From the NCBI GenBank assembly GCA_016933055.1, contig JAFGBS010000028.1, forward strand, positions 240,001-272,000: DNA of 32,000 bases, written 5' to 3'. Origin of the DNA: Promethearchaeota archaeon. GTDB lineage: Archaea; Asgardarchaeota; Lokiarchaeia; Sigyniarchaeales; Promethearchaeaceae. The translations under genes and the position numbers were made by a program. The notes under the pieces are model-generated. The model saw only the letters and a program-made list of their open reading frames with translations, was not told the DNA's origin and ran no database searches. Below, in pieces: positions 1 to 20,797 of the stretch (position 1 is the first letter of the stretch; each line of letters begins with the position of its first letter).

Positions 1-3000
1 TGGACAAAATATGTTAATCGCGAGTTAAACAATCAAATCCGATGCATAGTGTGGATCATTTTTCAAGTTATTATATCCATTTCCGTTGCTTTATTACTAG
101 AATTAACGTGGTATGGTCGAATTCTCCTTTTTCTGCAAATTTATTCCATATTAATGCCCCCATTAAATTATTTTTTAAAAAATGCAGGATTTAAAGTAAT
201 AAAATGGACAGAACGCACTGAGGAATTTACAAAATTACTAATGGTTATTACATCGACCGCATATTTAGCCAATCTCTCCTTAAGTACATTCTTCATCCAT
301 TTACATTCATCTACAACAAAGATCTTAGGATATGTCCCCTTTTTATTGCTGATAGTTCATATCATATTCCATATCACCTATTTTCGGAAAGAAACATCCC
401 TTAAACGCTTTTATCGAACCTACAATTTATCATTTCCCTTTATCATGATCAGCCTGTACTTAATTAGATACCAAACACAAATATACGAACTTTTTCCACC
501 TTGGGTGCCGGTTCTTTCTATAATTTCTCCGATTTTATCTGTTATATTGTTATGGTTTGCGTTATTCTATTATTATTCCATGGTTAAACAATTCAATATT
601 ATTCTGAATTTCTTCTACCAATTTATTCTTATTTTTATTGGGTCTATCTATATTCTTCACTTAGTCATAATTCCCCTAAGCACTCAGTATGGTTATGGAT
701 ATTTACATACTGATCAGATATTGGTAAGTTGTGCTATAACGTTTATTGGTTTTTACTATATACGTAAGGCAGCATATTTCGAGATATACAAAGGCTTTTT
801 GCAAGAGGAACCTGTTCGATTCCGCTCTATAGGGATTATTGCTGGAATATTGCGTACTGTAGGAGTTATTTTATTCGTTGGTTCTATCCTAAGATTAGTA
901 AATGTCATCTTTAATATCGCAATAACTCGTTGGACTATAACAACTTTAAATCTCTGGCAATTATCATTAATAAATTCCATTTTTAATTGGTCATTGGCTA
1001 GTTTTCTAGGTCTATTTTTATTTCTCTTCTTCTTAAAAGGATATTTCAAAAATTTTGACCAATATTCTTATAATTCTCGATTTATAATTCGCATTTTTAC
1101 CGTGCTTGCAGCATCTTTTGCAGTAGGAATGACAGTTATTCTTTATGAAACTACATATTTATTTGCATTGCCGCCTATATTAGTCGGTTGTTATTTTTGG
1201 CTATATTTTATTCAGAAAAAGAATCCTTATAGAGCAAACTTAACCATAGGCGCAGCAAAATCCATTCTGGTCTTTTTCTTCGTCTTCTGGACGTTGCATC
1301 AATATATTTTCAGATATTTATTTGGATCAATACTTATTTCTTCATCTCTTCTAACTACCATAGAATTATTACTATCTGCTGGCATCACTGGATTTGTATT
1401 TTCCCGGACCTTCCAAAATATTATCCTAAAAGGAAAAAATACCTTCTCCTGGATATTATTAGTGAGTTCAGTTAGTGCTATTTGTTATAGTTGCTTTCTT
1501 TCTTTGGATAATCTTGGACTTATAATTTCAGAACCGACAATAGAATTGGATTTCACCTTAAATTTGACTCTTACTCTTAATTTTGGGATTTTATTATTGT
1601 ATCTAGCTGTGGCTGTCCATCAATGGAAAATATCAAAAAAGATTTGGGATGTAGCATGGTGGTTATGGTTGTTCCTACCAATAATTAACTTCACGATTAT
1701 TTATCAATCTATAAGGGGTATAGATACTATTACAGAATCATTTTTTGTATTTGGATTAGAGGTTTCTGGTTCCGTATTATTAACAATAATAATATCTACA
1801 TTACTATATTTACCCATTATTTTAACCAAGTTTCAGAAAGCATACAAATGGTTTTTCTTTTTAACATGGATTGAAGCGATTCCCGTATGGATCTGGCTAG
1901 CTCCAAACATATTTCGAGATCCTAATTCTATATATTTATCTCCCTTATTTGTAACTGGATTATCTTTAATTTCTGCTGTTCCACTTCTATTTTCATTAAA
2001 ATATTGGAGAATAATTGCGGGAGTATGGATATTAATTGCTCTAATAAATGCGATGTTTCTTTCTATTTTGATTGACATTAGTTTTATCCCAGACATGATT
2101 ATGGATGTTTTTATCCATATCACTGTTTATGGTTTGTACATTATCATTTTCATATCTAACCCCCTCATAAGAGAAAGCTGGAAGAATTATGATTATGGGA
2201 TCCTGGTAGGATATCTATTGATGATTATAGGTGCATCCGTAGTAGTATTCGGATTTTCGTATGTGCTTACCCTTGATTATTTATACGCAATCAGCATCTC
2301 TGCTTTTTTCACCGGGATAATCATGATATCTGGCAGATATGTCAAATTAATCCATAACAGACTCAATCCTTATGCGGTTTTACTAATGGCAGCAGGTATT
2401 GGATTAGGATCTTTTCTATTTTTATACGAATTTAAGTTATTTCCAGTTAATCTTGATTTTACTTGGACTTTCCTTAATCAAACACTCCAAAATACCGTTT
2501 TTCCATTCTCCATAGCATTGATTTCATCCGGCGGAATTATACTGCTAGCACAAGCCCGTCAGTTAATAAATAAAAAACACTGGCGTTTAATGTATGCTTT
2601 TTTTGCTGTTGGAATTGGGGTTGCTATTGGTTCAGTGTTAGATAGTCTATTAGATTTGCCGAACCCTTTATTTGCAGCCATTGTGACTTTTTGGAGTGTA
2701 TTATCCTCATATCCAACATTTAGATATAAAAAACCAATCTTTTGGGGTCTATTTCCCCTTTTTATTGCATCATTGTCTGTTTATGGCTTTGAACAATTGA
2801 ATATAGGCTTTAATTGGTCATTTCACACCATTATTGGTGTGAACTACACATTTTGGATATTTTCCTTCAGTCTAGCGTCTCTTATTATTCATAAAGTGGT
2901 TAGTTTGTATTTCATGAGAAAATACCTCAAAGTTACAAGAGAATTAACTGATATGGGGATTTCAGATTATAAAACACTTCCGTTCGATGATGAGGACGAT

Positions 3001-6000
3001 GTATTGATGATACAGCAAAAGGAAATAGCAGTAAATTTAATTCAATCCTTGGAAATTTTACCACAATTTTACACTACCCCTCGTAAAATAGCTTCCTTAT
3101 ATTCTCTATTTTTATCTTTATCTCTGTATTCACTAAGTTATTTCATTTCTTTTATTACACCAATACCGTTGCTATTTCAAATTGAAGTATTCATTTTTTT
3201 GATTTCAGTCAGCACATTCATTAATCTAGCATACATTAAACGAAATGATATCTTTCAAAATCTGCATACTATTCGTTTTATTCGATTTATTGCTACGAAC
3301 TTGTTGTACGCTTCCATTTTGTACGGAATCATTATTCTTAATCGAATTATAATTCCGATTATCCCTGAATTAGTTAGCGGATTTTCCCTCACTGCAAATC
3401 TTACACTTTCTTTGAATATAGCATTAGATAGCATATTTTTTTATGTGATATTCATCATTTTAAGTCAATGGATTGCTTTTTATAACAAATTAATCACATT
3501 AATGGTTAAAATTATCAGTTGGATAACTTTTATTACTGCTATTAGTTATTTCCTCTACGCAATCACCTCTTTTACATACATTGTAGTTTTAATCGTAACA
3601 ATTGGAAGTTACCTTATTGTGATCCATTTACGCAATTTTCATAAGCATTATGCTATGACTTTGCGATTGTTGACTGATACCCTCTCTTCATCATCAGAAA
3701 AAATGACCGCACTGGAAGATTATGAAGAAAATGAATATTTAGAAGCACAATCAAAAGTACTGGGAATTGATTCTCCCATCCCCATTCCCCCTCCTTTGGA
3801 AATTCACTACGAGGATCTAGCAAGTGAGGCTGACTTTATGGAAGTAAAAGAAGTTTTAGATGCAATTTTACCACTAGACTCATCAGAAATGCCCTTTACT
3901 GCAGATTCACTATCATCTCAAATATCATCCAAGAAATCCCTATCGGACACTCTTGAATTAAGAGCAAAGCAAGAAAAACGGAGTAAGATCTTATATTCTA
4001 TTATCGGATTTTTTGATGCTTGGATTAAACAAGGAATTATTTTAGAACTTTCATATCTTGCAAGCTTAATATTCTCTAATATGTTCCCAAATATTAATGA
4101 GATCTCATTATACCATGTTTATGTCTTCAGATTGTTTATGTTCCTGTGTATCGCAACTACATTTTATAATTTTAAGAAATTGATTCCTGCAAACTATCGA
4201 TTAGTAGTTGTACAAATATTATCAACTCTGTTTATGGTTACGACCATATTAACTCCCTTTTCAGTGATTTCTGTGTATGGAACAGAGCTGAATCTTATAA
4301 TTGATCGATATTACTGGTCAAATATTATGTTCCTAGTATCCATTACCATATTTCTTCTTTTACTGCAAATTCAGCTTGTAATAAGAAATTATGTAGAAAC
4401 CAAAAATGTTCATCTGCGTCAACTAATAATCGATAAATGGAATGATGTCATTCAACCAATGCTTCTCATCTTAGCCGCTTACATTATTGCAAATATTATT
4501 TCCATCAATACACCACTTATCACACGACTTATAATAGCGGCCTTAATCCTATTTACCGAAGCCATTATTGAAAAGTATATTTTAAAAATATTTAATAGAC
4601 TGACTCGTGCACGGCTTCTTCTTTATTCTTGGATTCTGATTAATATATTGGGCATAATTCAAGTCGTTCAATTCCTTCCAACCTTGAAATTCTCATGGAC
4701 GTTAGGTATATTAATGCTACTAATTCTCGCATTCCTACAATACATAACTCTATATCTCTACTACTCACTAAAGAACGAAAAAATCATCCGAACCTATAAT
4801 ATTAATCCAATAGTTTTAAACCACTTTCTATTTCGAATGATGAATAGGCATGTTGACTGGGCTAAGAAAAGGAGTCCTAAGCATCTATATCAGCAGTATG
4901 AGCATTCAGAAAAACTAATCACATATAATGATTTCATCAAACCGAAATATAATTTCATGGCTTTAATAACTTATATTCTTATTAGTGCACTGCTTTCCGC
5001 TTTAATTTACGAATCATCTATAAAATCATTCATTTTAGGATATATCACAGAGTTAAAAGCTTTGGGGGTTAGTATTAATAATCTTTCTGCTTTATGGAAC
5101 CATCCCACAGGATTGCAGCTTCTAATTTTAAGTGGATTACCTATAATCATTGCTATAATTCTATCATTTGGGCTATTTTTTCAAGATAAATTTACGTTTA
5201 GAATTCTTCATGCTATTACGCGAGATATTTTCTTGATACTTTTATGGGTTTTGATCTCTGGAGGAATTTTATTCTATTCACTCGCGCTTTTGCAATTGTG
5301 GAAAGGAATTACGTATTCAAATTTATTAACCCCTGGCATGATAGCGATCATTTCAATCGCACAATATTATACAATCTATCTTATAACCGATATCGCCATT
5401 CATTCTACGAAAAATATAGACAAATTGGAATCAGAATTTTCTTCAATTAACTTAGAGACAATGAGTCATAGTGATTTAATGGAGTTATTGGCTAAAATCG
5501 AACCAAAACGTCTGAAAATTATTAAAAATCTAAACATGATATTAGGAATTATTATATACGGTACATTATCTGTGATAGCATATTTAATCGTTTATATATT
5601 CTCTCAATCTATCATTTTATCTCTTAGTGGAGCATTATTAATAGTATACGGTCAGTCAGAATTAAATTACTACATTCTAAAAGCGTTTCCCTCCAAGATC
5701 AGTTTCTATTATTCCTTAATGTCATGGATCTGTTTCAGTGTTTTAATATCCTTTAGTATCCCAATAGTATTTTGGGGAAATAATCCTGAATGGGTAGTCA
5801 ATTCTGATTTAAATATTGTGGTGTATATTACCAACGGATTTTTCGTTTCGACGTGTTTTTGCATTTTTAGTATTTTGTCTTTTGCTACACTCTTTATTTT
5901 AAAACGAAAATACTCCGATTACACCATCAAATTTCAATGGATGAAATATTTACGAATAGGAACTTATTTTACAATAACGGCAGTAGTTTTTGTATTGTTT

Positions 6001-6966
6001 ATTCCTACTTCGATTATGTTTGCATCATTTCTAAGTAGTCTTGTGTTATATTTGGAGATGGTAGGAGAGAGATATTTTCCAATCTTTATGAACAAAATTA
6101 CTCGTTTAATCCGTAGTATTAGTGCATTTATTATTTCTATTATTCTATGCTATTGGATCTATTCCTATATGGAAAATACATTTAATTTTGAAATCGCTTT
6201 AGCTGTTTCGATTCTTTTATTCACAATTTTAAGCCAATTAATATTCAATCCTTGGGAGTATAAAAAAGTCGCCGGTCCAATATTTTGGGGTTTTATTTCT
6301 GCCGAAATCGGATATCTAATCAGTAATATTGTCATAGTAAATAATATTCTACTTGGGATCGCTTCTGGACTGATTTTAATGGGATTGTATCCAATAATTT
6401 TTGAATTTTCACGCTTTGTGGACTTTTTCAGAAATATCGTAGAAAATATAAGAATTTTCTACCAGAAAATCATCTATTTCTTCAAAAACTTCTGGATTAA
6501 TCTAAAAAACTTTTATACGAAAAATAAAATATGGTTGACTCTTATCATGGTGTCGGCCATGTTTACAGGATTATTATTCGGGCTACGAATCCTCCTTCCT
6601 TTATACCAAGCAATGTTTATTAGCGCTTCGATAGCGTCTACATTTCTATTTCCGATCTTCATCACTCCAAAAGCTTTGAAAGACGAGAAATCGTTCTCCC
6701 GAATGGTTTATTATTCCGCAATTATCTATGTATTTGCAAACATCGCGATTTTTTCATTTGTGAAGATTAATATCATCTGGTTTTTGCTCTCATTAGTTTT
6801 ATTCAGTTCGATCTTATTAGTAGTGATTTATCGGCAAGAGACCCTATATAATTTATCGGTGCGCTGGAGATTGATTGGGTTGATAATAACGATATTATCT
6901 GCGGTTGTTCTCGTCTCCATGGTAGTTTTATATGTTATTGGGTTGATTTCCATAAAGTTTTTCTAA
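1..6966 (+). CDS. Giant polytopic membrane protein of unknown function, 5'-truncated at the window edge (>2320 aa)
   Basis: The frame of the 49..6966 ORF is open from base 1 (TGG ACA AAA TAT GTT AAT CGC... = WTKYVNRELNNQIRCIVW), so the true start lies upstream. It has dozens of hydrophobic 20-25 aa segments with short basic loops and no recognisable catalytic motif. Confidence 0.85.
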   Translation, partial: WTKYVNRELNNQIRCIVWIIFQVIISISVALLLELTWYGRILLFLQIYSILMPPLNYFLKNAGFKVIKWTERTEEFTKLLMVITSTAYLANLSLSTFFIHLHSSTTKILGYVPFLLLIVHIIFHITYFRKETSLKRFYRTYNLSFPFIMISLYLIRYQTQIYELFPPWVPVLSIISPILSVILLWFALFYYYSMVKQFNIILNFFYQFILIFIGSIYILHLVIIPLSTQYGYGYLHTDQILVSCAITFIGFYYIRKAAYFEIYKGFLQEEPVRFRSIGIIAGILRTVGVILFVGSILRLVNVIFNIAITRWTITTLNLWQLSLINSIFNWSLASFLGLFLFLFFLKGYFKNFDQYSYNSRFIIRIFTVLAASFAVGMTVILYETTYLFALPPILVGCYFWLYFIQKKNPYRANLTIGAAKSILVFFFVFWTLHQYIFRYLFGSILISSSLLTTIELLLSAGITGFVFSRTFQNIILKGKNTFSWILLVSSVSAICYSCFLSLDNLGLIISEPTIELDFTLNLTLTLNFGILLLYLAVAVHQWKISKKIWDVAWWLWLFLPIINFTIIYQSIRGIDTITESFFVFGLEVSGSVLLTIIISTLLYLPIILTKFQKAYKWFFFLTWIEAIPVWIWLAPNIFRDPNSIYLSPLFVTGLSLISAVPLLFSLKYWRIIAGVWILIALINAMFLSILIDISFIPDMIMDVFIHITVYGLYIIIFISNPLIRESWKNYDYGILVGYLLMIIGASVVVFGFSYVLTLDYLYAISISAFFTGIIMISGRYVKLIHNRLNPYAVLLMAAGIGLGSFLFLYEFKLFPVNLDFTWTFLNQTLQNTVFPFSIALISSGGIILLAQARQLINKKHWRLMYAFFAVGIGVAIGSVLDSLLDLPNPLFAAIVTFWSVLSSYPTFRYKKPIFWGLFPLFIASLSVYGFEQLNIGFNWSFHTIIGVNYTFWIFSFSLASLIIHKVVSLYFMRKYLKVTRELTDMGISDYKTLPFDDEDDVLMIQQKEIAVNLIQSLEILPQFYTTPRKIASLYSLFLSLSLYSLSYFISFITPIPLLFQIEVFIFLISVSTFINLAYIKRNDIFQNLHTIRFIRFIATNLLYASILYGIIILNRIIIPIIPELVSGFSLTANLTLSLNIALDSIFFYVIFIILSQWIAFYNKLITLMVKIISWITFITAISYFLYAITSFTYIVVLIVTIGSYLIVIHLRNFHKHYAMTLRLLTDTLSSSSEKMTALEDYEENEYLEAQSKVLGIDSPIPIPPPLEIHYEDLASEADFMEVKEVLDAILPLDSSEMPFTADSLSSQISSKKSLSDTLELRAKQEKRSKILYSIIGFFDAWIKQGIILELSYLASLIFSNMFPNINEISLYHVYVFRLFMFLCIATTFYNFKKLIPANYRLVVVQILSTLFMVTTILTPFSVISVYGTELNLIIDRYYWSNIMFLVSITIFLLLLQIQLVIRNYVETKNVHLRQLIIDKWNDVIQPMLLILAAYIIANIISINTPLITRLIIAALILFTEAIIEKYILKIFNRLTRARLLLYSWILINILGIIQVVQFLPTLKFSWTLGILMLLILAFLQYITLYLYYSLKNEKIIRTYNINPIVLNHFLFRMMNRHVDWAKKRSPKHLYQQYEHSEKLITYNDFIKPKYNFMALITYILISALLSALIYESSIKSFILGYITELKALGVSINNLSALWNHPTGLQLLILSGLPIIIAIILSFGLFFQDKFTFRILHAITRDIFLILLWVLISGGILFYSLALLQLWKGITYSNLLTPGMIAIISIAQYYTIYLITDIAIHSTKNIDKLESEFSSINLETMSHSDLMELLAKIEPKRLKIIKNLNMILGIIIYGTLSVIAYLIVYIFSQSIILSLSGALLIVYGQSELNYYILKAFPSKISFYYSLMSWICFSVLISFSIPIVFWGNNPEWVVNSDLNIVVYITNGFFVSTCFCIFSILSFATLFILKRKYSDYTIKFQWMKYLRIGTYFTITAVVFVLFIPTSIMFASFLSSLVLYLEMVGERYFPIFMNKITRLIRSISAFIISIILCYWIYSYMENTFNFEIALAVSILLFTILSQLIFNPWEYKKVAGPIFWGFISAEIGYLISNIVIVNNILLGIASGLILMGLYPIIFEFSRFVDFFRNIVENIRIFYQKIIYFFKNFWINLKNFYTKNKIWLTLIMVSAMFTGLLFGLRILLPLYQAMFISASIASTFLFPIFITPKALKDEKSFSRMVYYSAIIYVFANIAIFSFVKINIIWFLLSLVLFSSILLVVIYRQETLYNLSVRWRLIGLIITILSAVVLVSMVVLYVIGLISIKFF

Positions 6967-13069: not shown

Positions 13070-14389
13070 CTATTTTCTGTAATAACCATATTTTTTGACC
13101 GCATTTTCCATTGCAAGAACATTTTCGTGCCGTGCTTCATCCGGAATGCCTGCAATCGCCCCATCAATAAGGTAGCCCCCACCTTCGGAACAATCTTCTA
13201 TATTTTGCCTAACATACTCCTCCACTTGTTGAGGAGTTCCTGCAACTAATAAAGAAGCGGGAACATTTCCGCGGATACACACATATTGTCCCATCATCTC
13301 CTTTACTTGCTTCATATCAATATCGTGGAACCAATAAACCATTTTTCCTTTATGTTTTTTAGCAAACTCTGCCAAGTACTCTAATCGATCACTATAACAC
13401 CCTTCAAAGAAAGGAACTGGAATGATTTCACGCTCTATCATGCCTTCCATCATCATAGTAAGACTTGGCCAATAGAATTCCTCGAATTGTTTATTATTCA
13501 TAAATCCATTGGCGCCTCGATGTAAAGGAATAAAACACAGTCTAGGTACACCCTCTGAGTCATCTGATTCATAAATACTTTTCCCAGAGTCAATACTTCT
13601 CAATGTAGCCTTTGCTAGGATATCACAGAGTCTTTTTAACTCATCAGGTCGTCGATACATATCCAGCATGGTCCCTCTCATACCCCTAACTGAATCCGAG
13701 ATTCGATCAAATGAAGCCATATATAATCCACCCCCCATACCCCCAAGAGGAAATCCAAGAGATTCCATCTTTTTCTTATAAGGTCCCAAGGTTAGTAAAT
13801 ACGGAAGCAGTTTAAGCTTGCTCAAATTAACTTTTCTAACCATTTTTAGAAAATCTTTATCAATTAGGAATAATCCCAGGTCCATTCCAGAACCCATAAA
13901 TGCAAATTTGTCCAAACCTGGGAATTTACTGAAGGCACTAAGACCTACATTCTGTTTTGCTACAATTTTTCGAAGGAAAAATCCCGTAGGATCATCTAAA
14001 CACTCATCATATTCATCTTGTTTCATCCATTCTCCTTCAACGGCTTGAAAAGGTCGATTATCAGGTAGTCGAGAGTTGGGGTCTTTTGCTCCCGGCCATT
14101 TGAAATTTTGTATTCCAAGTACATCATAAAAATGTCCAAATCCATTTTGAGAGACTCCAGGATATAAATCCCAATCATACCGTTTACAGATTTTTATAGT
14201 CGCTAGTAAATTCTTTCGTCCACTATACCAAACCTCTTTTTGACTGAGTCCAGCTTGATTAGAAATAAAAAACGGGTTCATCTGCGGTGTTAATGGTACT
14301 CTATCTGGTTCTTTCAAGTTTATGGCATCATTCACTCTTTGGATTCTGTCTTTAAATAATTGCTTTTTGTGTTTTGACATATTATTCAC
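13070..14389 (-). CDS. Uroporphyrinogen decarboxylase (URO-D)/MtaA-like methyltransferase family protein
   Basis: Motifs INLKEPDRVPL, FDRISDSVRGMRGTMLDMYRRP, FIPLHRG and CIRGNVPASLL..GTP..VEEY..GGGYLI. Adjacent to a corrinoid protein gene. Confidence 0.85.
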   Translation of the reverse strand: MNNMSKHKKQLFKDRIQRVNDAINLKEPDRVPLTPQMNPFFISNQAGLSQKEVWYSGRKNLLATIKICKRYDWDLYPGVSQNGFGHFYDVLGIQNFKWPGAKDPNSRLPDNRPFQAVEGEWMKQDEYDECLDDPTGFFLRKIVAKQNVGLSAFSKFPGLDKFAFMGSGMDLGLFLIDKDFLKMVRKVNLSKLKLLPYLLTLGPYKKKMESLGFPLGGMGGGLYMASFDRISDSVRGMRGTMLDMYRRPDELKRLCDILAKATLRSIDSGKSIYESDDSEGVPRLCFIPLHRGANGFMNNKQFEEFYWPSLTMMMEGMIEREIIPVPFFEGCYSDRLEYLAEFAKKHKGKMVYWFHDIDMKQVKEMMGQYVCIRGNVPASLLVAGTPQQVEEYVRQNIEDCSEGGGYLIDGAIAGIPDEARHENVLAMENAVKKYGYYRK

Positions 14390-15005
14390 TCATCCATTCA
14401 TTCGCTATTTTGACAGCGGTGACAGCTGAGTCTCCAAATTTATCGGCTCCAACATATTCAACGATTCTTTCATCAATAGTACCTCCACCAATCATGATTT
14501 TAAGAGAATCTCTAAATCCTTCAGCCTGTAGTTTTTCTATAATTTCTTTCATGGAATCAAAAGAAAGCGTAAGGAACCCGCTTAATGCTAATATCTTCGG
14601 ACTGTGTTCTATAATAGCTTTTATAAATTTTTCCGCAGGAACATCCACACCTAAATCAATAACTTCATAGCCATTTATATCCAGCATAAATCGAACTATG
14701 TCTTTACCAATGTCATGTATGTCTCCCGCAACAGTTCCAAGTATTATTTTGCCTTTAGATTCAGTCGCAGCCCCTTCTTTTAATTTTGGTTGCAGGAGTT
14801 CGAAAATTTCCTTAAGAATTTCTCCTGACATAATGAGTTCAGGCAAAAAATATTCGCGTTCACTAAACTTATCCCCAATGATCTTCATAGCGGTTTTTAC
14901 ATCAGTTAAAATTGCTAGTGGGTCCTCGTCACTATCCAATCGCTTTTTTAATAGTTCATGGACAACATCTTCATTCAAATCTACTAATTCATCGATAAAT
15001 CCCAT
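14382..15005 (-). CDS. Corrinoid (cobalamin-binding) methyltransferase protein, MtaC/MttC-like
   Basis: Cap domain (IGDKFSEREYFLPELIMSGE), B12 motif GTVAGDIHDIGKDIV, LALSGFLT and IMIGGG. Overlaps the URO-D gene by 8 bp. Confidence 0.92.
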   Translation of the reverse strand: MGFIDELVDLNEDVVHELLKKRLDSDEDPLAILTDVKTAMKIIGDKFSEREYFLPELIMSGEILKEIFELLQPKLKEGAATESKGKIILGTVAGDIHDIGKDIVRFMLDINGYEVIDLGVDVPAEKFIKAIIEHSPKILALSGFLTLSFDSMKEIIEKLQAEGFRDSLKIMIGGGTIDERIVEYVGADKFGDSAVTAVKIANEWMSE

Positions 15006-17803: not shown

Positions 17804-18484
17804 ATGGATACGATGGATAGGATGTCCGATCCCATTTTTCAGAAATACCCCAATGCATCAAGAGTAAAAAATAGAGAATATCATTTGCAAATCCCACTTA
17901 CTAAAGACGTTAGTATTTTTATCAATTTCAAGCGATATCCTTATCCTCCAAATGTGAAACTCGTAAAAGAATCGGGTGAGAGGTTTCGTCTTACTACTGT
18001 TTTATCCCATCTAAGGGATTGGAATGTGAAAGAACCCTTTAGTTTAGTTTCAGTTATAGATGAAGTTTTCTTATTAGTAGAAAGTATCATTAATCGGCAG
18101 ATTCCTTTCACAGAATCATGTTTTCAAGGATTAATCGACATATGTAAGGAAAATCATCCGAGAAAAATACAAGGAGTTTTATCCGTTCATCAAGGAAAAG
18201 TATCACAGCTTATTATTCCTGCAATTGAATGCTCGGAACCAGAGAATAGGATTAATTATGTCAATTTTCAATCTATGTGTGTTCTTCCTTTCGATTTATC
18301 CTACGAAGGAACATTTATTTCTCGACCCGATGGAAATTTAAGCATAAATAGGAGACTAAATCGAGTGTTTCGGAAACGAAGATTTACAATGCTTCTTGGT
18401 CATCCATATGATAATCCGGAAAATGTGAGATTATTTGATCGGGATGGAAGAGAATTAAGTTATGTCATTTTAAGTAATAGATAG
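17804..18484 (+). CDS. UEV/UBC-like (BRE/BRCC45-like) domain fused to a catalytically inactive JAB/MPN domain
   Basis: N-terminal part has YHLQIP..IFINF..YPYPP..LSHLRDWNVKEPFSLVSVIDEV with no catalytic Cys. C-terminal part has HPRKIQGVL, GTFISRPDG and LLGHPYD..NVRLFDRDG, following archaeal JAMM proteins but without the E/H/H/D residues. Confidence 0.65.
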   Translation: MDTMDRMSDPIFQKYPNASRVKNREYHLQIPLTKDVSIFINFKRYPYPPNVKLVKESGERFRLTTVLSHLRDWNVKEPFSLVSVIDEVFLLVESIINRQIPFTESCFQGLIDICKENHPRKIQGVLSVHQGKVSQLIIPAIECSEPENRINYVNFQSMCVLPFDLSYEGTFISRPDGNLSINRRLNRVFRKRRFTMLLGHPYDNPENVRLFDRDGRELSYVILSNR

Positions 18485-18499
18485 TGAAATTTTTTCAAG

Positions 18500-19642
18500 T
18501 CATGGTTCAAAGTTATTCACAATGTCTCGGATTCGTTCTAATTTTGTGATATCTCCATTAGGACTTAGCTCATCTGATACTCCTAATATTAAATTTGGAG
18601 AAAAGGTTTCAAGAACTTTTCGTGTATAATTTTCCACATATTCCAAGGAGTATTGGGGTAAAAATAGAATTGAAGGTACACCATCTAGCAAAATTTTGTC
18701 CCCAATATATTGACTTAATTCATCAATGGTCACATCTCCTTGTGGATCACAAGTTAAAGCTTCTAGTCCATCGAATGGTAATTTTTCAAAATAAGGGAGA
18801 AGTTGCTTGAATGAACCATCTATGTGGATATGAGTAACAATACCAACATTTCTTAATTGTTTAACTCGCTTTTCATAATAGGGAAGTAAATATTTTTCGA
18901 AAATAGGTGGAGGGGATAGGTTCGCATCAATATTTTCCCCGAAATTAACAATACGAACTGGAGATTTTTCAACTAGATTGTACATTTTGTCATCCCATTC
19001 TTCCATATAAGCCATGAAATCTATCATTTCATTCGGTTTACGTTTTAGTAGTACAGTTGTCCTCGTAAATCCCATAATTGTTTTTATTAATCGCTGGTAT
19101 GGCGTTGAAAATACATAGAGACTTGCTATACCTCGTGATCCTAATAATTGTTCAGCTTCTTCGAAATTTTCTTGATTAAACTGAAATTCAGTATTGTCTA
19201 AAATATATTTCATAATAGGGATATCCTCAATCGATTTTACAGGAAATTCAATATAATGGGCACCAAGACCTCCCCCAATTGCCTTAGTTTCAGTTAGAAC
19301 ACCTAGAGGGGTTGAATAAACTGTAATAGTTTCTCCCTTTTTAGATCCTCTCTTGGATCTTATGTGGATTCCAGCTTCTGGTTTAATTTTAGTGCTTAGA
19401 ATCGGTAGATATAGAGTTTCTTCTGCATATCGGGGACTAGCATCCAACATATCATATATTTCTAATTGGGTTTTTCCTATGAACCTATCAGGAACTGGTC
19501 CTTTGAGATATTTATCAGGCTTTTTAACCAGTAAATTATTTCCCAGGTACCAATAATAAATTCGAGGACTATATACAATTCGGTTTATTGAAGTATGGGA
19601 AAATGTATCCCATAATCGATCCCGCAGAGATTTTACAGCCAT
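18500..19642 (-). CDS. Second URO-D/MtaA-like family protein
   Basis: Motifs YSTPLGVLTE, EFPVKSIED, NFGENID, FEKYLLPYY, HIHIDG, GLEALTCDPQGD and GVSDELSPNGD. Confidence 0.8.
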   Translation of the reverse strand: MAVKSLRDRLWDTFSHTSINRIVYSPRIYYWYLGNNLLVKKPDKYLKGPVPDRFIGKTQLEIYDMLDASPRYAEETLYLPILSTKIKPEAGIHIRSKRGSKKGETITVYSTPLGVLTETKAIGGGLGAHYIEFPVKSIEDIPIMKYILDNTEFQFNQENFEEAEQLLGSRGIASLYVFSTPYQRLIKTIMGFTRTTVLLKRKPNEMIDFMAYMEEWDDKMYNLVEKSPVRIVNFGENIDANLSPPPIFEKYLLPYYEKRVKQLRNVGIVTHIHIDGSFKQLLPYFEKLPFDGLEALTCDPQGDVTIDELSQYIGDKILLDGVPSILFLPQYSLEYVENYTRKVLETFSPNLILGVSDELSPNGDITKLERIRDIVNNFEP

Positions 19643-19693: not shown

Positions 19694-20797
19694 TTAAAGT
19701 AAATCTTCTGGAATTTCTCCTTTATAATATTGAGGACGTGTGACCCAGGATTTCTGAAAATCGGGCAAACTGCTTAATATCGAACCGCCTATCCAACAAG
19801 AAAAAAATCGTTGTTTCGGAGCAATAATTCGTGGCTCTCGCATTTCCTTTCCTCTCTGGGCCAATTCAATTTCCAATTCATTTTGTAACCGAAATTCTAA
19901 TTGAGGTATAATAGAAGTCCCTCCAGACAGAAATATATTTTCTAACAGTTCATTTCGTGTATCTAAATCACAATTATCAATAACATCCAAAATCGCAGTG
20001 TGCAGTGGTTTCTCCTCCAGATTAAATAATGCAGGCTTAAACAGTAATTCAGGTACCGTGAATCGTTCAATCCCGAGTTCGATCATAGATCCATCTGGAA
20101 GTCGAAATTCCTTATTTTTTACATGGTATTTATCTTGGTTGTAATCTAACGAAACAAAACAAGCCCGTTCCTTCAGAACTCTGCCAATTTCCCTACGAAC
20201 TGAAGAATCGGTTGAGAATCCTGCATTTTGAAGTTGTTCATACATAAAAGTATCAAGAACTGTCCCCCCTATTTGAAGAATCTCAATAGCATGACTTAAC
20301 ATATATCCTTGATAAATTGGAACAATTCTAATTGAGCTTGCACCCATTTCTACCACCAATCCCGTTTGAAAACCTCCGGAATACATTGTTAAAAGCGAGT
20401 CTAGGATTGGATAAAATCCCATTACTTGATATTTATCAAAAAATAATTCAAAAAGCCGTCGTTTTTCTTCAGTAGAAAGCATAGGATGATAGGAATAAAG
20501 AACATTTACTATGGAAGGGTCTATGCGTAAGGTATAAAACACATAATCCAAAATTTGCTCAAAGAAATTCCAATCTTCGATTCTCCCTCCTATGATAGGG
20601 TGATGAATTTTGTATAGTCCGATTGAACTTGAAATTTCATTTCCAACATAATATTGCTTTTTATAATCCATTTCGATGTCTTGGTATTTAGGTTCTCCTA
20701 CAAGTGAATAGAAATTGTTGCGTGGTTCATTTTCTCCTGCAAATCCAATTTTACTAGAAAACTCTCCGATATCTAGAACAATTGTGATATTTGTCAT
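19694..20797 (-). CDS. Actin-family protein (divergent Asgard actin/ARP-like)
   Basis: Colinear with actin: IVLDIGEFSSKIGFAGENEP, YVGNE, EDWNFFEQI, TGLVVEMG..IRIVPIYQG, LPDG, ERFTVPELLFKP, NIFLSGGTS, IIAPKQR and WIGGSILSSL..FQ..W. Confidence 0.93.
   Translation of the reverse strand: MTNITIVLDIGEFSSKIGFAGENEPRNNFYSLVGEPKYQDIEMDYKKQYYVGNEISSSIGLYKIHHPIIGGRIEDWNFFEQILDYVFYTLRIDPSIVNVLYSYHPMLSTEEKRRLFELFFDKYQVMGFYPILDSLLTMYSGGFQTGLVVEMGASSIRIVPIYQGYMLSHAIEILQIGGTVLDTFMYEQLQNAGFSTDSSVRREIGRVLKERACFVSLDYNQDKYHVKNKEFRLPDGSMIELGIERFTVPELLFKPALFNLEEKPLHTAILDVIDNCDLDTRNELLENIFLSGGTSIIPQLEFRLQNELEIELAQRGKEMREPRIIAPKQRFFSCWIGGSILSSLPDFQKSWVTRPQYYKGEIPEDLL

Follow-up and report, generated by a model that had tools for sequence, protein, structure and literature searches.

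We analyzed a 32,000-nucleotide stretch of a Promethearchaeota genome (hereafter, the window; G+C ~33%), in which the gene at positions 17804–18484 on the plus strand encodes a protein of 226 residues followed by a stop codon. As had been predicted from the DNA itself, the frame is open throughout; it offers alternative starts at M4 and M7, and the public gene call uses M7, which yields a product of 220 residues. The gene is flanked by a PfkB kinase gene and, directly downstream on the opposite strand, by a URO-D-like gene (18500–19642, minus strand), the second of its kind in the window. Another URO-D-like methyltransferase gene adjoins the gene for a B12-binding corrinoid protein at 13070–15005 (minus strand), and these URO-D-like and corrinoid genes are probably methyl-transfer modules. 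The window also contains an actin-family gene (19694–20797, minus strand; Pfam Actin, E 4.5e-78), which lies within a co-oriented minus-strand run, and an open frame of more than 2300 residues (1–6966, plus strand) that extends past the window start. The low G+C and the actin gene mark the window as Asgard DNA.

We compared the surroundings of the gene in the window with those at four other loci carrying it. These loci had no neighbor in common, and no ubiquitin-system gene was a conserved neighbor at any of the five loci. Because the flanks differ at every locus compared, no operon partner can be named.

The C-terminal half is an MPN domain with a replaced JAMM site

A word-indexed search retrieved 103 relatives of the protein, mostly ~222 residues long, which come from Lokiarchaeota/Promethearchaeota metagenome bins and are unnamed or annotated as hypothetical. 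With an E cut-off as loose as 10, neither Pfam, including its JAB and Prok-JAB profiles, nor NCBIfam matched the protein, and a PDB search with its sequence alone found no match. An alignment of 53 orthologs, with identity to the query down to ~34%, contains 37 invariant columns, and an AlphaFold2 model of the whole protein built on this alignment reached a pLDDT of 84 and a pTM of 0.76.

Structure and profile searches identified residues 100–226 (18101–18481, plus strand) as an MPN domain of the minimal AfJAMM type. Foldseek matched residues ~99–226 of the model best to AfJAMM/AF2198 (E 6e-6; TM-score 0.85 by target), followed by Rpn11, Rpn8, CSN5/6 and the Caldiarchaeum Rpn11, and the AlphaFold DB clusters matching the model were JAB/MPN proteins. 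In parallel, the profile of the 53 orthologs matched AF2198/AfJAMM by sequence (E 1.3e-6, profile positions 100–221). The agreement of profile and fold indicates that the likeness to JAMM proteins is not due to chance, and bears out the MPN assignment made for this half in the original prediction. AfJAMM (PDB 1OI0 and 1R5X), the best match by both sequence and fold, shares the same compact fold of ~120 residues without the eukaryotic insertions; however, its E...HxH...S..D zinc site is complete and it lacks an N-terminal domain, whereas in the protein described here all five of these residues are replaced and a UBC fold stands in front.

In the profile alignment to AF2198, K121 occupies the position of the catalytic Glu, I172 and R174 those of the two His, and R184 that of the Asp. 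A joint alignment with active homologs gave the same mapping and placed N182 at the Ser position. Thus, as originally proposed, all JAMM residues have been replaced: the protein has none of the catalytic Glu, HxH, Ser and Asp, and the replacements are fixed in its orthologs, which we refer to as dead forms. The Lys at the Glu position lies within HPRKIQG (residues 118–124; 18155–18175, plus strand) and is present in 100% of the dead forms, while 96% of the active forms have Glu. ISRP (residues 172–175; 18317–18328, plus strand) stands in place of HSHP, with Ile for the first His in 98% and Arg for the second in 100% of the dead forms. In N182-R183-R184 (18347–18355, plus strand), Asn replaces the Ser in 100% of the dead forms, and the zinc-binding Asp has given way to Arg here and to Lys in 70% of the orthologs. 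Both motifs, HPRKIQG and ISRP, start exactly where they had been placed, with N182 and L185 following.

The absence of every catalytic residue might by itself point to a decaying copy, or pseudogene, of an active protein of the same architecture. However, the frame is intact in ~100 orthologs, the substituted residues do not vary and dN is much lower than dS, with dN/dS of 0.14–0.33 in the dead family for pairs with unsaturated dS. Moreover, the close orthologs, down to 35% identity, likewise lack HxH. Since the same replacements recur in ~100 orthologs, the loss of the JAMM residues is not decay. The conservation data refute the pseudogene reading, to which we assign a negligible probability, and show that the dead family is retained under purifying selection.

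Conservation is equally evident around the former active site. The clade-specific invariant pair C143 and C159 (18230–18280, plus strand) flanks a lengthened loop at the Ins-1 position. C143, C159, E168 and T195 are invariant among the dead forms and are not the residues most common at those positions in the active clade; a basic stretch preceding R193 is retained as well, and SYEGTFISRP, the strand of the former active site, hardly varies. Conservation this strong, combined with the two new invariant Cys, hints that the site has been rebuilt. H118, K121, C143, C159, E168, R174 and N182 would then form a new Cys/His metal or catalytic center, making the protein a neo-enzyme; such a center might be built from C143, C159, H118 and E168, or K121, R174 and R184 might replace the zinc and sense the free C-terminus of ubiquitin. 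Six of these residues (C143, C159, E168, K121, R174 and N182) occur in 100% of the dead forms and are unlike the commonest residues of the active clade, and the loop that the two Cys bracket and the near-invariant strand fit the same picture. On the other hand, no known motif was matched, the dead family has no Pfam, NCBIfam or PDB sequence matches other than JAMM, and the loop between the two Cys (residues 144–160) was modeled with pLDDT below 50. We regard a rebuilt site as improbable; if true, it would constitute a new functional class of MPN domain that evolved within Asgard archaea.

The N-terminal half is predicted to be an inactive UBC fold

Residues 1–99 (17804–18100, plus strand), modeled alone with AlphaFold2 on an alignment of 34 sequences, gave a pLDDT of 91.6 and a fold consisting of a helix, a four-strand meander and two helices. 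A VIA-align comparison against 48,161 chains returned the UEV of Tsg101 (Z 8.8), the UEV-like domain of VPS37A (8.7) and the UEV of Vps23 (8.4), followed by many E2s, residues 268–375 of BRCC45 (7.9), the double RWD of FANCL (7.2) and the RWD of GCN2 (6.9); the best 50 rows were nearly all members of the UBC superfamily (Z 8.8–6.2). Foldseek likewise listed E2s almost exclusively among its best 50 matches, though with E values of at least 0.06. By sequence, Pfam UQ_con, UEV and RWD matched neither the protein nor any of 34 related N-domains, and the N-domain profile found no PDB sequence at E ≤ 10.

The sequence hallmarks on which the original prediction relied are present in this half. YPYPP (residues 45–49; 17936–17950, plus strand) corresponds to the YPxxP turn of UBC and RWD folds in the alignments, and its P46 is invariant across both the dead and the active clades. 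The segment from W73 to E87 (18020–18064, plus strand) reads W73-x4-P78-x2-L81-x2-V84-x2-E87, and W73 is invariant throughout the family. Residues 1–105 contain no Cys, and the HPN motif is absent. Taken together, the UBC-fold structural matches and the lack of both Cys and HPN indicate that the N-terminal half, as modeled, is a catalytically inactive UBC fold of the UEV/RWD-like kind, in keeping with the fold originally assigned to it. Its best structural matches, the UEVs of Tsg101/Vps23 and VPS37A and the RWDs of GCN2 and FANCL (Z 8.8–6.9), share with it a Cys-less UBC fold, the YPxxP turn and the lack of the C-terminal E2 helices. They differ in context: the domain described here is joined to an MPN domain rather than to ESCRT-I, kinase or RING modules.

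The N-domain recurs in the same genome. Its profile matched repeats 2–3 (E 2.6e-12) of a 618-residue protein encoded on the minus strand of contig 22. This protein comprises four UBC/RWD-like repeats and a C-terminal finger rich in Cys and His; its first and fourth repeats match Pfam UQ_con (29 bits, past the family's threshold) and RWD, which links the N-domain to these families only indirectly. With hhalign, the N-domain profile aligned to the UQ_con-positive repeat at E 0.065, in register at YP...W, while the alignment to the RWD-positive repeat (E 0.09) was not meaningful. Frames resembling this four-repeat protein, 550–590 residues long, occur in many genomes of the order.

The N-domain had been likened specifically to the first UEV of BRE (BRCC45), a claim that goes too far. 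The UEV-type fold is common to both, and the YP...W register matches. Pfam BRE (PF06113) was the sole family that recurred among the 34 N-domains, in four of which it scored below threshold (best E 0.021; 13.2 and 11.6 bits for the two relatives with scores listed, against a cut-off of 25.8), and these subthreshold matches fall on the YP...W stretch of BRE's first UEV. However, Pfam BRE did not match the protein itself, and the likeness is generic: BRCC45 ranked seventh in the VIA-align search, with 6% identity, though within 1 Z unit of the top matches, and several other UBC-fold proteins match the N-domain better. The architectures also differ, as BRE has two tandem UEVs and no MPN domain, whereas the protein here has one UBC-fold domain followed by an MPN domain. 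We therefore treat the BRE-specific likeness as a weak lead and not as evidence of membership.

The dead form arose by one duplication from an active isopeptidase

An exhaustive phmmer search recovered distant homologs (20–32% identity) with the same length and two-domain layout, which we call UEV-JAMM, and in almost every one the HPxE ... HSHPSGNxxPSxxD site is intact. Whole-genome searches recovered this two-domain family from the window's own order alone, with JAMM-only relatives elsewhere in the phylum. When the N-domain profile was used to look for longer, fused forms among the 8000 proteins with the most words in common, it recovered no protein outside the family. Most genomes of the order encode the active form of ~220 residues without the dead one. 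By comparison, seven genomes belonging to two genera yielded the dead form: the window's genome, its congener (G206) and five genomes of one genus in a sister family (G071, G083, G113, G171 and G153). Six of the seven, namely the window's genome and the five of the sister family, also encode an active UEV-JAMM paralog, and the seventh is 76% complete. The dead and active genes were never adjacent in the genomes compared.

We built a maximum-likelihood tree of 61 sequences, including 26 dead forms, rooted on JAMM-only relatives. The dead forms constitute a single clade (SH-aLRT 100), which lies inside a clade (support 99) shared with the active forms of one family of the order (f2). This nesting of the dead clade among active forms indicates that the site was lost once, after duplication, and shows that a single duplication of an active UEV-JAMM isopeptidase of the same order gave rise to the dead form. 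The protein had also been proposed as a possible ancestor of eukaryotic MPN+/MPN− complexes. This part of the original prediction does not hold, as the dead clade is nested in an order-specific active family and was recovered from two genera only, which makes it a late and independent development. Common descent with the eukaryotic MPN-minus subunits is likewise unsupported, given that the nearest solved relative is AfJAMM and not Rpn8 or CSN6. The dead form is thus an analog, not an ancestor, of Rpn8, CSN6 and Abraxas.

Two further homologs deserve mention. In P0110, a metagenomic homolog from the active clade, HPKE is kept but the site is partly eroded (LISH..., with Thr in place of the Ser and Glu in place of the Asp); judged by its sequence, the site is possibly being lost here a second time, independently. 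The other, an active UEV-JAMM homolog, is encoded on contig 1 (1667564–1668202) of G216, a genome in a single contig from the same taxonomic family; of two matches there, the longer contains a single in-frame TAG.

The genome encodes a ubiquitin system and further MPN proteins

The window's genome contains a ubiquitin–E1–E2–JAB operon and a second ubiquitin-like gene. It encodes six active JAMM proteins, five of which are MPN proteins with an intact JAMM besides the operon JAB, and all of its Pfam JAB and Prok-JAB matches are to active proteins. Its MPN proteins also include a coiled-coil-tailed pair encoded on the plus strand of contig 2, ~184 kb before the window, in which the genes for an MPN+ protein (HSHP...S..D) and its MPN-minus sister (SSRL...N..N) overlap by 19 nt. 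This MPN-minus sister belongs to an unrelated lineage, yet shows the same replacements of the second His by Arg and of Ser by Asn as the protein in the window.

The only active UEV-JAMM found in this genome is the C-terminal module of a 486-residue protein (contig 17, 498098–499555, minus strand; Pfam zf-AN1 and Prok-JAB), in which an AN1 zinc finger and TPRs precede the UEV-like domain and the intact JAMM and which ends in ...NIYV. Searches of 60 other genomes of the order turned up no protein that matched this fusion over its full length. A complex prediction for the dead protein with the UEV-JAMM module of the fusion (residues 241–472), run without controls, gave a score of 0.02, which counts neither for nor against an interaction.

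Pairs of active and dead MPN domains are a hallmark of the deubiquitinase machines of eukaryotes, namely the proteasome lid, the COP9 signalosome and BRISC/BRCA1-A, in which Rpn8, CSN6 and Abraxas/ABRO1 are the MPN-minus partners of Rpn11, CSN5 and BRCC36. The dead form resembles these subunits in being a conserved MPN domain, free of zinc ligands, that is kept beside an active MPN+ paralog in the same genome. It could accordingly heterodimerize with the active UEV-JAMM or with another JAMM, activating, positioning or stabilizing it. As in the eukaryotic pairs, the two paralogs are equal in length and architecture, and their co-occurrence in all but the incomplete genome fits such a partnership. 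However, the active form occurs alone in most genomes of the order and so does not need a partner, the two genes are never adjacent, and the only active UEV-JAMM of the window's genome is the very divergent AN1–TPR fusion, which sits on a long branch of the tree. Unlike Rpn8, CSN6 and Abraxas, the dead archaeal form originated independently and has no helical tail, PCI or coiled-coil partner; its heterodimer is putative, and its active paralog is widespread without it. We consider an activating partnership of this kind unlikely, and an obligate one in the manner of Rpn8 has less in its favor than conjugate binding or modulation of the active enzyme, given that the active form often occurs without the dead form and the genes are never linked.

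A role outside ubiquitin signaling, in which the domains would serve as protein–protein or nucleic-acid binding modules like the MPN domains of eIF3f/h or Prp8, has some appeal, since ubiquitin-system genes are absent from the neighborhood and the protein is basic (pI ~9), with an invariant KKRRF stretch. However, the active sister clade is equally basic (median pI 8.7), such that the two forms cannot be separated by pI. Moreover, both domains come from superfamilies of the ubiquitin system, the isopeptidase site of the parent protein is intact, and the N-domain recurs in the 618-residue, E3-like protein of the same genome. On balance, we judge such a role to be rather unlikely.

Discussion

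Our tentative explanation, to which we give somewhat less than an even chance, is that the protein is a pseudo-deubiquitinase, which would bind ubiquitin-type conjugates without cleaving them and thereby tune their removal by an active paralog. It would have kept the substrate-recognition scaffold, namely the UEV-like domain and the MPN groove, and could thus bind ubiquitin or ubiquitin-like conjugates while being unable to cut them. As a reader, protector or competitor, it may then modulate the active UEV-JAMM or another of the six active JAMMs. The cationic or polar K121, R174, N182 and K/R184 could fill the former metal site and, more speculatively, might still contact a carbonyl or carboxylate of the ubiquitin tail. 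The ligand need not be ubiquitin, since the JAMM-only proteins closest to the family belong to a kind of minimal archaeal enzyme known to act on SAMP-type modifiers. Against a pseudo-deubiquitinase speak the lack of a conserved ubiquitin-system neighbor at the loci compared and the conservation of the former active site and the two new Cys, which is stronger than is usual for a passive scaffold.

UBC-fold and JAB domains have previously been found together in prokaryotes. Bacteria encode E2–E1–JAB triple-module proteins, and polyUbl operons encode inactive E2/RWD-like proteins, whose Cys-less E2-like domains were proposed to bind Ubl (Iyer, Burroughs and Aravind 2006, PMC1779556). Those systems resemble UEV-JAMM proteins in combining a UBC fold and a JAB in one protein or operon; however, they have an E1 in between, an active JAB and conserved operons, whereas the protein described here is a direct fusion with a dead JAB and no operon. 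UEV-like and RWD-like domains have also been reported in Asgard archaea (PMC6601020). In the literature searched, we found no description of a UEV-JAMM fusion or of a dead derivative, and the fusion scaffold is to that extent previously undescribed.

The tree places a eukaryote-style evolutionary move, datable by its branching, in the archaeal group closest to eukaryotes: an active isopeptidase was duplicated, its whole zinc site was lost once, and the product was then retained for a long time. The finding also adds to the evidence for elaborate ubiquitin signaling in Asgard archaea, as a single genome combines six active JAMMs, two independent MPN-minus lineages and multi-UEV RING proteins. 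Being small, soluble and composed of two domains, the protein offers a model for what pseudo-deubiquitinases do, and because single-contig genomes from the same taxonomic family encode the active parent form, experiments on the enzyme side may also be within reach.
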